DNA of 64,000 nucleotides from Escherichia coli (lineage in GTDB: Bacteria > Pseudomonadota > Gammaproteobacteria > Enterobacterales > Enterobacteriaceae). The DNA lies in NCBI RefSeq assembly GCF_011045215.1, contig NZ_CP049201.1; one strand, given 5' to 3'. The stretch's first letter is position 1. Every line of letters starts with the position of its first letter. Below, in pieces: positions 47,888-50,335 of the stretch. The notes below the pieces were generated by a model that saw nothing but the letters and a program-made list of their open reading frames with translations, did not search any database and had not been told where the DNA came from. Position numbers and translations under genes: made by a program.

Positions 47888-48094
47888 TTACAGCAACTGG
47901 TGAGGGCTGGCATAAGTTGCCGGTGTTTCGGTAGAGTCACGTTCATCCACCACGCGGAGTGAATCACCGTTTTCAGCGACCTTGTTAATCAGTTCAGTGA
48001 TATTAACACCATCAATATCAACGACAATTCGCCCCATATTCAGTGCCTGTACGTTAACGCTGTCGGCTTCCAGTGTCAGGGCCAGTTTCATCAT
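47888..48094 (-). CDS. yeeW: YeeW-like small prophage protein, 68 aa
   Basis: ORF track; overlaps cbtA stop; position as in CP4-44. Confidence 0.6.
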
Positions 48095-48465
48095 TTCGCC
48101 TCCGGATACTTACCCAGGGTGATATTGTTCACCGTTCTGTAGTTGTGGCGGGTCATCAGGCCTGTTGCCCGGCGAGCCCGGAGAATATCAATGCTGTTGA
48201 TTAACTGCGACGAGGCTCCTGCGCTGAATCCCGGCTGGTCAGTTCGTACCAGTGCGTATTTTTCCACGAGAAAGTTCACTGCATCACACAGTGAAATGCC
48301 TGCCTCAATATGCTGCTCAATCACGCGTTCATCCACGAACGGTGTGTCATTCAGCGTAAGGCTGTAATGCTGGTCCAGTAACCGGGTGAGCAGTGTCTGC
48401 CAGATGGTGACGGGAGACGGGCAGCACGATACCTCCCGTACATGCGTGTCGGGTAATGTTTTCAT
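48091..48465 (-). CDS. cbtA: CbtA (YeeV) cytoskeleton-binding toxin, 124 aa
   Basis: ORF track; [30 protein letters not shown] matches YeeV/YkfI/YpjF family. Confidence 0.88.
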
Positions 48466-48554
48466 ACTGAAGATTTTCCTGATATGCAGAGATAAAAAAT
48501 GGGACAGTGGCGTGGTGAAAACACCAGGCCGGAGCAGAAGGTTATTCTGGTGGT

Positions 48555-48923
48555 TTACTTTTTCGTTTCAGGTGTCGGATAAACAGCCAGATAAACGTAA
48601 CCACAGGAGCCGAGGGTGTCGGCTTCACAGGTCAGCCCCTTCGCATACAGTGTCACGGTATGCTGATGGCGGGGATTCAGTTCACCACTGGTGAGCATTA
48701 ATTTCAGTTGTTTCATCAGCAGCGGAAAGGCCTGGTCCAGAGGGTACGCATCCGCATCTCTGAACCGGCCTCTGATACCGGCACGGTCGGCAAGGTAATG
48801 CAACCGGTTACCCTCCTGCACCAGACGGGCGCCGAAACAGGGCGTCACTGTGCAGGGTAGTCCCCACCAGGGATGGTCGTTATTGTCATCGGGATGCGTT
48901 GTCCCGGAAAGTGTGTCTGACAC
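48555..48923 (-). CDS. cbeA: CbeA (YeeU) antitoxin, 122 aa, GTG start
   Basis: ORF 48555..49031; start moved to GTG preceded by GAGGA RBS giving [52 protein letters not shown]. Confidence 0.8.
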
Positions 48924-49085
48924 GATAAAATCCTCACAGAAAATCGGTGAATGATAGTTTAACGATGACGGGTCAGCCGGCGCGCAGACCGGCTTCGGTA
49001 AAGGTGTATTCGTTGATGAGCAGGACCTCATCCACAGCGGCGTCTGAGCTCAGCCAGTCGTACTCGTTTTCCGGGTGACGGAACA

Positions 49086-49307
49086 TCAGTTCAGGGTGAC
49101 GCTCATCAGCCGGACATACGGACCAAAACTGTCCTTACGGCGTTCTGCAAACACGGCCAGCACACCGGGAATATCCTGCACTTCACGACCGGTATACGCT
49201 TCAGCACTGCCGTGCCAGCGGTATTTGCCGGTACAGAACGGAAAAAGACGGGATGCCGGATGCTGACGGTGAATACGCATGGCTTCGCCACGGGTGATGA
49301 TTTTCAT
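49086..49307 (-). CDS. yeeT: YeeT (DUF987) prophage protein, 73 aa
   Basis: ORF track; MKIITRGEAMRIHRQHPASRLFPFCTGKYRWHGSAEAYTGREVQD. Confidence 0.85.
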   Translation of the reverse strand: MKIITRGEAMRIHRQHPASRLFPFCTGKYRWHGSAEAYTGREVQDIPGVLAVFAERRKDSFGPYVRLMSVTLN

Positions 49308-49369
49308 AGTGGGATACCTCTGAAGACAGAAGATAAAAGTGAAAACAGGTGTGATGTGGTTGTGACGGG

Positions 49370-49846
49370 TTAAAGCAGACCATGTTCGGCAAAGGAGAAA
49401 ACCTGGCTGCCACCGACTATCAGATGGTCCGGCACCCGGATATCCACCAGGCCCAGTGCCTGTACCAGACGTTCCGTGATAAGGCGGTCTGCCTTGCTGG
49501 GTGTGACTTCACCGGACGGGTGATTGTGTGCCAGCACCACGGCAGCGGCATTGTGATACAGGGCGCGTTTAATCACTTCACGGGGATGGACTTCCGTGCG
49601 GTTGATGGTGCCGGTGAAGAGGGTTTCACCGGCAATCAGCTGATTCTGGTTGTTCAGATACAGCACCCGGAACTCTTCACGCTCCAGTCCCGCCATGTTC
49701 AGAATCAGCCATTCTCGTGCCGCACGGGTGGAGGTGAAGGCCACGCCGGGTTCATGAAGATGGCGGTCCAGGGTTTTCAGGGCCCGTTGAATGAGGCTGC
49801 GCTCGCCGGGCGTCATCTCTCCGGGCAGAAAGGAAAGCTGTTGCAT
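49370..49846 (-). CDS. yeeS: RadC-like JAB-domain protein (YeeS/YkfG/YfjY family), 158 aa
   Basis: ORF 49370..49861; start at MQQLSFLPGE after GGAGAG; HNHPSGEVTPSKAD JAMM motif. Confidence 0.85.
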   Translation of the reverse strand: MQQLSFLPGEMTPGERSLIQRALKTLDRHLHEPGVAFTSTRAAREWLILNMAGLEREEFRVLYLNNQNQLIAGETLFTGTINRTEVHPREVIKRALYHNAAAVVLAHNHPSGEVTPSKADRLITERLVQALGLVDIRVPDHLIVGGSQVFSFAEHGLL

Positions 49847-49861
49847 TGTACTTCTCTCCAT

Positions 49862-50335
49862 TCAGTCGATGATGCGCATAATGGCGCTGCATTCCGGATG
49901 CTGCAGGGCGTAATCCCGCAGCCGGTAATAATGGACCGTCATAGCATAACACTCCGTACGACAGGCATGATGACTGTACGTCATCAGACAGGCAGCAATG
50001 CCGGCGGCTTCCGGGCTCATTTCAGCGCGGTTACCGTTCATGGCATTGAACAGTACCCATGTTTCGTCATCATCGTCATCCGGTTCGGGTGCCATAAATG
50101 CCCCGCCGTTGTTCAGGGTGTACAGATTCCAGATACCACCGCAGTAGTCTTCGCACAGACGGTCCATCCAGCCGAAGACACGGGGCTCCAGGGTCACCCA
50201 CTGTGGAATGAGGCCAAAGTGCTGCGGCCAGAAGCTGATGCGCTGTTCATCAGGGACGAGGGTGGCAACCAGTTGTTGCAGGTCAGTCTCCGGTGCACAG
50301 GCCGAAGAGGTGGTGTTCTGAGACAATGTTTTCAT
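49862..50335 (-). CDS. Antirestriction protein (KlcA/ArdB-like, YafX/YfjX family), 157 aa
   Basis: C-terminal 157 codons of ORF 49862..50743 starting MKTLSQNTTSS; acidic DDDDDETW stretch; the long N-terminal extension of the ORF is probably not coding. Confidence 0.7.
   Translation of the reverse strand: MKTLSQNTTSSACAPETDLQQLVATLVPDEQRISFWPQHFGLIPQWVTLEPRVFGWMDRLCEDYCGGIWNLYTLNNGGAFMAPEPDDDDDETWVLFNAMNGNRAEMSPEAAGIAACLMTYSHHACRTECYAMTVHYYRLRDYALQHPECSAIMRIID

Follow-up and report, generated by a model that had tools for sequence, protein, structure and literature searches.

An ordinary, partly decayed cryptic-prophage operon of Escherichia coli carrying the cbeA and cbtA genes

Identity and location of the operon

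The six minus-strand open reading frames (ORFs) at positions 47888-50335 of the window, a 64,000-nucleotide stretch of Escherichia coli DNA, very probably (at roughly 90%) represent the conserved distal operon of a cryptic prophage or integrative island of the CP4-44 type, situated at the chromosomal site that CP4-44 occupies in K-12. The module is already known: it is an ordinary E. coli cryptic-prophage operon in a partly decayed state, and a shortened form of a conserved block that is larger elsewhere. The flanking chromosomal genes (tmaR, yeeA, sbmC, dacD) are colinear with the K-12 CP4-44 flank, window positions 40910-44233 align to K-12 2078678-2082000, and positions 47504-49822 align to K-12 yeeS through yeeW. 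All six ORFs have Pfam matches (E-values of 1e-28 to 1e-60), which, together with matches to PDB structures, bear out the originally predicted gene identities; the order along the minus strand is ArdB-type antirestriction, YeeS (RadC/JAB), YeeT (DUF987), CbeA, CbtA and YeeW-like. The predicted limits of the module are exact, 50335 being the A of the antirestriction ATG and 47888 the final base of the YeeW-like stop codon. The genes, remnants and adjoining element are as follows.

50708..53345, plus strand: IS21-family element (istA, istB), most similar to an ISSso4-type copy and interrupting a DUF932 gene at its 3' end
50430..50677, minus strand: small cysteine-rich gene of 81 codons, frameshifted, with an ATG at 50677 that overlaps the DUF932 stop codon (TGATG)
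49862..50335, minus strand: ArdB/KlcA-type antirestriction gene (ard), 157 aa, ATG at 50335 with an AAGGA ribosome-binding site upstream
49370..49846, minus strand: yeeS, RadC-like JAB/JAMM domain protein, 158 aa, starting MQQLSF
49086..49307, minus strand: yeeT, DUF987 protein (Pfam DUF987), 73 aa
48973..49086, minus strand: 3'-terminal 37 codons left of a deleted 214-aa gene, lying within the yeeT-cbeA spacer (162 nt)
48555..48923, minus strand: cbeA (yeeU) antitoxin, 122 aa, starting with GTG at 48923, which follows GAGGA after a 7-nt spacer
48466..48554, minus strand: cbeA-cbtA spacer, 89 nt, with an imperfect hairpin, GGCCUGGUG UUUU CACCACGCC
48091..48465, minus strand: cbtA (yeeV) toxin (Pfam CbtA_toxin), 124 aa
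47888..48094, minus strand: yeeW-like truncated DUF5983 gene, 67/68 aa, its start overlapping the cbtA stop codon (ATGA)
47762..47854, minus strand: DUF957 gene fragment with an internal deletion, aligned to the intact DUF957 gene of locus L006

The segment 47600-50707 shares 99.7-99.8% DNA identity with many E. coli chromosomes and finds matches at 15907 places, in 5046 of 5426 genomes (median of 3 copies per genome), window-type alleles with an identity of at least 99% being present in 1544 records; the nearest record, E. coli NCTC9008, is 98.2% identical over 24 kb. The original prediction that all six genes are full length stands for five of them, as seen in end-to-end reference alignments, but not for the YeeW-like gene, which is a truncated DUF5983. 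Alignment of the five intact genes with reference proteins revealed neither frameshifts nor premature stops, and the K-12 YeeS, YeeT, CbeA and CbtA proteins give full-length alignments to their window counterparts without gaps. Furthermore, four of the five intact proteins are identical to those of E. coli OkiPb01717, from which CbeA differs only by D15N and the start codon.

The module proteins, as well as the 81-aa and 214-aa proteins of the wider block, have no match to the known defense-system models of PADLOC, and RadC is the only NCBIfam model matched among the module proteins. An Rfam scan of positions 44000-54000, at E-values up to 1, detected no known RNA element; its sole match, to a eukaryotic IRES model (15.6 bits versus a gathering score of 191), is a chance match.

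The antirestriction, YeeS and YeeT proteins

The antirestriction protein, which is identical to WP_000855059.1 as annotated in locus L001, matches Pfam Antirestrict (PF03230, 8.7e-37), phrog_10132 (anti-restriction), ArdB of E. coli CFT073 (PDB 2WJ9, E=2.7e-110, residues 1-157) and KlcA (PDB 2KMG, 2.6e-21). The structure of ArdB and its anti-type-I restriction activity in vivo are known, and activity is known for both ArdB and KlcA (PMC2836571). By analogy with these homologues, the window protein would be expected to block type I restriction as the element enters a new host.

YeeS is identical to WP_001186774.1, matches Pfam RadC (PF04002, 1.5e-44) and TIGR00608 (1e-43; 149.6 bits, above the cut-off of 133.85), and is a paralogue of LfgB/YfjY with 73% amino acid identity. 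Its JAMM motif HNHPSGEVTPSKAD (HxH-x7-S-xx-D), read directly from the translation, is intact, and by comparison with its homologues the protein is probably a RadC-like JAMM metalloprotease. The mechanical yeeS ORF is 5 codons longer and extends to 49861. YeeT covers the whole Pfam DUF987 profile (positions 1-65 of 65, 1.5e-40) and is 97% identical to K-12 YeeT.

The CbeA/CbtA pair and its spacer

The cbeA gene lies directly upstream of cbtA on the same strand, 89 nt apart, and its product matches Pfam CbeA_antitoxin (PF06154, 8.2e-53) and the PDB structures 2INW (1.2e-74) and 2H28 (YeeU, 1.6e-73), with 89% identity to K-12 CbeA. The GTG start with its GAGGA ribosome-binding site, as originally predicted, is correct, but it is normal and no oddity: K-12 CbeA is likewise annotated with a GTG start, GTG is used in eight of nine sampled E. 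coli loci (K-12 included), and across E. coli genomes 4339 places show the GTG context and 3 the ATG one.

CbtA matches Pfam CbtA_toxin over profile positions 1-112 of 112 (PF06755, 2.5e-60) and is 85% identical to K-12 CbtA over 124 aa, without gaps. The FtsZ-contact residue F65 is present in the translation, and residue 15 is Cys, as in YkfI and YpjF, in place of the Arg of K-12 CbtA. The contacts of CbtA with FtsZ and MreB and the role of F65 have been described, and in K-12 CbtA the R15C substitution abolishes MreB binding (PMC5624674), so that MreB inhibition by the window allele, with its C15, is uncertain. YpjF, however, carries C15 yet binds MreB, and its C15R substitution is without effect (PMC5624674); R15 is a K-12 allele-specific determinant and not a family-defining one. 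Judging from its homologues, CbtA would bind FtsZ through a surface of which F65 forms part, and probably MreB too, binding that would block cell division and elongation. As a type IV antitoxin, CbeA would counteract this toxicity not by binding the toxin but by bundling and stabilizing filaments of FtsZ and MreB, a mechanism that has been described for CbeA, which does not autoregulate (PMC5371832).

The spacer between the two genes shows a distance of 0.07-0.11 to CP4-44-type copies, compared with dS values of 0.32-0.69 in the flanking genes, and is 3-6 times more conserved than the synonymous sites of these genes. A K-12 spacer of 88 bases, versus 20 bases in the paralogues, was described by Wen et al. 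(2017; PMC5371832). The predicted RNA fold of the window spacer is not significant (z = -1.5) and the natural variant L009 has a stem pair broken without a compensating change, for which reasons no structural claim is made for the spacer. The 89-nt spacer and the almost invariant non-ATG cbeA start are both features specific to the CbeA clade.

Gene remnants and the IS21-family insertion

The YeeW-like protein matches only DUF5983_N (PF25638, 1.2e-28) and is devoid of the C-terminal PF19419 domain, while full-length DUF5983 relatives of 162-163 aa, including the L006 protein, contain both. It retains 67 of ca. 162 aa: homology to the full-length relatives ends at ca. 47936, and the 86-nt tail that follows is absent from full-length loci and 100% identical to K-12 yeeW, which encodes a 64-aa protein with the same truncation. 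A normal family length of 67 aa was considered, the closest database matches being mostly 64-68 aa, but was rejected because intact plasmid and chromosomal relatives measure 162-163 aa. The dN/dS of the yeeW-like gene is 0.4-0.6. At the position equivalent to the DUF957 fragment, PGAP annotates a partial DUF957 in loci L001 and L005.

The 37-aa ORF in the yeeT-cbeA spacer, whose ATG overlaps the yeeT stop codon (TGATG), was rejected as a genuine small gene, since it corresponds to the 3' end of a gene that elsewhere is intact and encodes 214 aa. In alignments, the intact 645-nt version occupies the same position in loci L008 and L009; the intact protein matches phrog_5162 (3.9e-36) and no Pfam family. 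K-12 and L006 show a different deletion, which leaves of this gene only the first bases, ca. 13 in number.

The lesion in the 81-codon gene is a 2-nt TA insertion within 50519-50522, and a second insertion, of 1 nt, is found at 50417 in the spacer; with both insertions, the frame runs on without a stop into the antirestriction gene. Loci L012 and L013 have the 81-aa gene in intact form, as aligned at the DNA level, and an 84-aa Klebsiella protein recovers the remnant by tblastn (E=2e-19) split over two frames; the 81-aa protein has no match to Pfam, PHROG or PADLOC families. The junction sequences of the IS21-family element display a 7-bp target duplication, TTCTGCC, at 50701-50707 and 53346-53352, the insertion having cost the DUF932 gene its last 8 codons. 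Colinearity with L001 and L005 breaks at this insertion, and the identification of the element also draws on the L005 annotation; the exact IS/target junction sequence was not found in the species-representative genome collection.

Reading frame, selection and transcription

The view that the long antirestriction ORF is an artefact of merging is upheld, the merged ORF (49862..50743) being 293 aa long with 136 codons beyond the antirestriction gene. The accompanying suggestion that these upstream codons are probably not coding holds insofar as they lie outside the antirestriction protein, but they are not plain non-coding DNA: they contain the frameshifted 81-codon gene, the last bases of the DUF932 gene and the end of the IS21-family element. 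The codons are better described as not part of the antirestriction protein. Three gene remnants in all went unnoticed in the original reading of the module: the 81-codon gene, the 37-codon end of the 214-aa gene and the DUF957 fragment. A genuine N-terminally extended or fused antirestriction protein, of 293 aa or of 271 aa from the ATG at 50677, would account for a frame that is open for 132 codons 5' of the ArdB ATG even in genomes without the IS (a rough estimate puts the chance of this at ca. 0.002) and for the coupling of the ATG at 50677 to the DUF932 stop codon. However, the open frame is explained by the 2-nt and 1-nt insertions at the 81-codon gene, which has its own stop in intact alleles, and the small-protein homology changes frame after codon 52. 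In addition, the Pfam domain is wholly inside the final 96 residues, the ATG at 50743 falls inside the IS21-family element, and the crystallized ArdB (2WJ9) and all PGAP annotations begin at the 157-aa ATG with its own AAGGA site, all of which makes a fusion highly improbable.

With the separate 157-aa antirestriction gene counted as one of five intact genes, dN/dS amounts to 0.08-0.43 for ard, 0.04-0.35 for yeeS, 0.02-0.19 for yeeT, 0.12-0.19 for cbeA and 0.08-0.20 for cbtA, and to 0.04-0.25 for the five genes against diverged copies. Purifying selection thus operates family-wide on all five intact genes and not on the toxin-antitoxin pair in particular; the window copy hardly differs from its nearest relatives and therefore affords no power to test selection on that copy alone. 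The original proposal of selection on the toxin-antitoxin unit agrees with the low family-wide values but not with their lack of specificity, ard, yeeS and yeeT being equally low. Selection peculiar to the pair, by addiction or island stabilization while the surroundings decay, would fit the intact state of cbeA and cbtA (dN/dS of 0.08-0.20 versus diverged copies) amid damaged neighbors (the 81-aa, 214-aa, DUF5983, DUF957 and DUF932 genes), but is unlikely, since ard, yeeS and yeeT are as intact and as constrained as the pair, making the conserved unit one of five genes and not two. In fact, the lesions are common to thousands of genomes and are old inherited events rather than ongoing local decay, and three IS insertions in ca. 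13 kb of island DNA are estimated, roughly, to miss a 2.2-kb target by chance ca. 57% of the time, that is, more than half. K-12 also tolerates antitoxin deletions, which argues against strong addiction (PMC5371832). With several decayed genes in the block, the whole element is eroding.

By analogy with homologous operons, the five intact genes are most likely co-transcribed, from a putative promoter in the ca. 370 bp that separate the antirestriction gene from the IS insertion. A consensus scan revealed no sigma-70 site upstream of the antirestriction gene, and counts of consensus promoters and terminators are near the shuffle expectation; a terminator-like inverted repeat at 50633-50604 was dismissed as chance, being inside the small-gene coding sequence and not conserved in Klebsiella. 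The IS insertion at 50708 severs the operon from upstream DNA, so that the operon could be transcriptionally silent. A silent relic, whose genes are still intact for no other reason than the short time since function or promoter was lost, would be in keeping with this insertion 372 bp upstream of the antirestriction gene, the lack of a consensus promoter, the weak transcription of type IV toxin-antitoxin genes in K-12 (PMC5371832) and the 99.7-99.8% identity to relatives, which allows for recent neutral evolution. It is nevertheless quite unlikely, as the five genes are intact, with low dN/dS, across copies diverged to dS of 0.3 to more than 1, and the paralogous CP4-57 lfg operon is inducible, with phenotypes (PMC10846083). 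A joint account, in which selection maintains the five-gene operon as a unit and not the toxin-antitoxin pair, the other block genes (the 81-aa Cys-rich and 214-aa genes, the DUF5983 C-domain, DUF957 and DUF4942) are repeatedly and independently lost, the GTG start and 89-nt spacer may set the toxin:antitoxin ratio of a system devoid of transcriptional autoregulation, and the JAB protease may share control, is speculative and in its entirety rather doubtful.

Implications

The discovery value of this locus is small: it is a textbook cryptic-prophage toxin-antitoxin operon, of which thousands of sequenced genomes carry a nearly identical version. Its practical use lies in annotation, where GTG is correct as the start of cbeA, as is the 157-aa start of ArdB, and no gene should be annotated on the 293-aa ORF; yeeW is here a truncated DUF5983, and two 'intergenic' stretches are pseudogene remnants. 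The same five genes survive in all three paralogous islands of K-12 as well as in the window, and experiments are therefore best aimed at the five-gene operon and not at the toxin-antitoxin pair alone.

Comparison with known islands

Compared with K-12 CP4-44, the window module has the same chromosomal site (tmaR, yeeA, sbmC flank), the same yeeS-yeeT-cbeA-cbtA-yeeW order, the same cbeA GTG start, an 88/89-nt cbeA-cbtA spacer and an identical truncated yeeW tail. The two differ in that K-12 CP4-44 has yeeR in place of the ArdB gene, lacks the first 10 codons of yeeS, which the window retains, and has lost the 214-aa gene but for those first bases, the window keeping its last 37 codons; the CbtA N-terminus contains C15 in the window and R15 in K-12, and Ag43 (flu) is deleted in the window.

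The lfgABCDE genes of CP4-57 (yfjX-yfjY-ypjJ-yfjZ-ypjF), for which the five-gene operon and the LfgB protease have been described (PMC10846083), have the same order and correspond one-to-one to the five intact window genes, and yafX-ykfG-ykfH-yafW-ykfI of CP4-6 likewise follow the order antirestriction, RadC/JAB, DUF987, antitoxin, toxin. The toxins of both islands have C15 and F65, as does the window CbtA. Protein identity to the window operon is, however, only 59-82%, and both islands have a 20-nt antitoxin-toxin spacer, versus 89 nt in the window, ATG antitoxin starts, antitoxins of 105 aa and toxins of 109-113 aa, the window versions being longer. At the level of single proteins, the antirestriction protein is near-identical to ArdB of CFT073 (2WJ9) over all 157 residues, with no difference of note, and KlcA (2KMG) belongs to the same family.

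The fuller block, found in other E. coli and on Klebsiella plasmids, consists of DUF932, an 81-84-aa gene, ArdB, RadC, DUF987, the 214-aa gene, CbeA, CbtA, DUF5983, DUF957 and DUF4942, and the window agrees with it in gene order and in the homology of every retained gene. Relative to this block, the window has DUF932 minus its last 8 codons, a frameshifted 81-aa gene, a 214-aa gene reduced to 37 codons, the N-domain only of DUF5983, a fragment of DUF957 and no DUF4942.

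Composition of the module

The module at window 47888-50335 was recognised correctly by the original prediction, with boundaries that coincide exactly with the ORF coordinates, but it is entirely known already. It contains six consecutive ORFs on the minus strand, for which the Pfam assignments are unambiguous, and of these six genes five are intact and one is truncated; the module also holds three previously unrecognised remnants. An Rfam family search of the module region gave no match, and none of the PADLOC models matched the module.

Genes of the module and the neighbouring insertion element.
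50335..49862 (-): antirestriction gene (ardB); Pfam Antirestrict, 8.7e-37
49846..49370 (-): yeeS; Pfam RadC-like JAB, 1.5e-44
49307..49086 (-): yeeT; Pfam DUF987, 1.5e-40
48923..48555 (-): cbeA; Pfam CbeA_antitoxin, 8.2e-53
48465..48091 (-): cbtA; Pfam CbtA_toxin, whole profile, 2.5e-60
48094..47888 (-): yeeW-like gene; Pfam DUF5983_N, 1.2e-28
50708-53345: IS21-family element with istA and istB; nearest match an ISSso4-type copy of E. coli NCTC9008, 96.5%

The claim that all six genes are full length holds for five, which align end to end, and fails for the yeeW-like gene, a truncated DUF5983 member. Frameshifts and premature stops against reference proteins, named beforehand as the contrary evidence, are absent from the five genes: global alignments with K-12 YeeS, YeeT, CbeA and CbtA, and with six other copies, contain neither, nor any gap. 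In strain OkiPb01717, the RefSeq proteins have exactly the sequences translated from the window for ArdB (157 aa), YeeS (158 aa), YeeT (73 aa) and CbtA (124 aa); CbeA (122 aa) differs from its counterpart there solely by D15N and the start codon. All 157 ArdB residues are covered by the match to the crystal structure of CFT073 ArdB (2WJ9; E=2.7e-110), PDB 2INW and 2H28 (YeeU) are matched by CbeA, and the JAMM motif HNHPSGEVTPSKAD is kept in YeeS.

In CbtA, Phe 65, which is required for FtsZ binding (PMC5624674), is present, and the most divergent part is the N-terminal 30 residues. Codon 15 (window 48421-48423) encodes Cys, as in the paralogues YkfI and YpjF, whereas K-12 CbtA has Arg at this position. 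Engineered R15C in K-12 CbtA abolishes MreB binding, and because C15R in the paralogues had no effect (PMC5624674), the effect of Cys 15 in the window protein is uncertain.

Start and spacer of the toxin-antitoxin pair

The GTG start predicted for cbeA, with its GAGGA ribosome-binding site, is correct (GTG at window 48923, preceded by GAGGA and then 7 nt), but it is the norm for the clade and already in the reference annotation, since the K-12 annotation of cbeA has this start too, GTG opens the gene at eight of the nine E. coli loci sampled (the ninth has ATG), and a 33-nt probe spanning the start matched 4339 places in 2861 genomes in its GTG form, compared with 3 places in 2 genomes in its ATG form. 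One Klebsiella homologue is annotated with TTG. A mechanical 158-aa cbeA ORF from 49031, which passes through a 37-codon remnant, was rejected, as neither annotation nor Pfam domain limits support it.

The 89-nt cbeA-cbtA spacer (window 48466-48554, minus strand) shows distances of 0.07-0.11 and is 3-6 times more conserved than the synonymous sites of the flanking genes (dS 0.32-0.69); in the CP4-6 and CP4-57 paralogues it measures only 20 nt. Its sequence has an imperfect hairpin that precedes a T-run; the predicted fold is not significant (z = -1.5), and no compensatory change or covariation was seen.

Truncated gene and remnants

Sequence comparison indicates that the yeeW-like gene is not full length. 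It matches K-12 YeeW, and its closest database relatives are mostly 64-68 aa, compared with 162-163 aa for intact DUF5983 members beside cbtA in other E. coli and on Klebsiella plasmids, which carry both the DUF5983_N and the C-terminal DUF5983 domain. DNA homology with the full-length gene ends at ~47936; the 86-nt tail that follows has 100% identity with K-12 yeeW but is missing from full-length loci, and beyond it homology restarts inside a DUF957 gene with an internal deletion. Its dN/dS is 0.4-0.6, the other genes showing ≤0.25 in most comparisons.

The yeeT-cbeA spacer, 162 nt in the window versus 73 nt in K-12, holds the 37-codon ORF (49086..48973, minus strand), the surviving 3' end of a 214-aa gene that falls in phrog_5162 but in no Pfam family. 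Strains CH4804 and 18SZHZ655Rt have this gene intact at the same position (1969-2613 of both loci, L008 and L009). In K-12 and at locus L006, which has the full-length DUF5983 gene, a different deletion removed it, sparing the first ~13 bases; the 214-aa gene has therefore been lost at least twice, by independent deletions.

Upstream of ardB, the mechanical ORF 49862..50743 (293 aa) is 136 codons longer than the 157-aa gene, and its ATG (50743) lies inside the IS21-family element. The original prediction was right to separate these ~135 codons from the antirestriction gene, and the extension was rejected as part of that protein; "probably not coding" describes them less well, as they are a pseudogene plus spacer rather than featureless DNA, and the gene is intact elsewhere. 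The frame is open for 132 codons in IS-free genomes also, improbable by chance (~0.002, a rough estimate). This is explained by a frameshifted, cysteine-rich 81-codon gene between DUF932 and ardB (window 50430-50677, minus strand): two nucleotides, TA, inserted after codon 52 and a single one inserted in the spacer cause reading to skip the small gene's stop and return to the ardB frame. Both lesions are common to the window, OkiPb01717 and 1544 records (best match to the stretch ≥99% identical), and the frameshifted allele appears the commoner in E. coli. Strains ZH063 and OkiPb01680 carry the gene intact, Klebsiella plasmids carry an 84-aa homologue, and Pfam, PHROGs and PADLOC contain no matching family; the stop codon of DUF932 and the ATG of the small gene overlap (TGATG), an arrangement predicted to couple the two translationally. 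A GC-rich inverted repeat with an 11-bp stem (window 50604-50633, minus strand) was flagged as terminator-like; it probably reflects chance, since it falls within this coding sequence and its conservation does not extend to the Klebsiella homologue.

The IS21-family element is inserted in the 3' end of the DUF932 gene (54140..53346 plus 50707..50677), where it replaced the last 8 codons and is flanked by a 7-bp target duplication, TTCTGCC. At its left end the element has several GATTTGGCAT-type direct repeats; 372 bp separate it from ardB, and a promoter scan detected no consensus promoter upstream of the module.

Selection on the module

Compared pairwise with diverged copies, ardB has a dN/dS of 0.08-0.43, yeeS of 0.04-0.35, yeeT of 0.02-0.19, cbeA of 0.12-0.19 and cbtA of 0.08-0.20. 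These values describe the family, as the window copy has diverged too little from its relatives for a test of its own. Because dN/dS is low in all five genes, the constraint is family-wide and equal across them. The chance that three IS insertions all miss the module is about 0.57 by our estimate, and hence statistically uninformative; with all five genes equally constrained, the proposed selection on the toxin-antitoxin pair specifically is therefore unsupported. For the five-gene core as a whole, selection is plausible.

Inferred functions

In vivo, ArdB protects DNA entering the cell against type I restriction (PMC2836571), and the window protein would do likewise. CbtA blocks polymerisation of FtsZ and MreB, CbeA bundles polymers of both without binding the toxin, and neither autoregulates the operon (PMC5371832, PMC5624674); by homology, the window CbtA would inhibit FtsZ and probably MreB, and its CbeA would bundle the polymers without contacting CbtA. 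LfgB, a YeeS paralogue, is a reported protease degrading MqsA (PMC10846083), which suggests that the window YeeS may be a protease.

Genomic setting and relation to known systems

At 99.7-99.8% identity, window 47600-50707 recurs in many E. coli chromosomes, and 5046 of 5426 complete genomes contain a match, with a median of 3 copies per genome; the closest record overall is E. coli NCTC9008 (98.2% over 24 kb). At window 54586-54600, where the two aligned blocks share 15 nt, the Ag43/flu autotransporter gene is deleted (~2.8 kb in the E. coli reference locus L001, 10358-13175). An IS100 copy (istA 340 aa, istB 260 aa) adjoins an IS110-family transposase pseudogene, frameshifted and with an internal stop (window 44371-46323 and 46575-47603); NCTC9008 has both, whereas K-12 retains only small fragments (yoeD, yoeF) there.

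The tmaR, yeeA, sbmC and dacD flank is colinear with the K-12 flank of the cryptic prophage CP4-44, whose yeeS, yeeT, cbeA, cbtA and yeeW align with the window genes from yeeS to the yeeW-like gene. The five intact genes correspond to yafX-ykfG-ykfH-yafW-ykfI of CP4-6 and to the five genes of the lfgABCDE operon of CP4-57 (PMC10846083).
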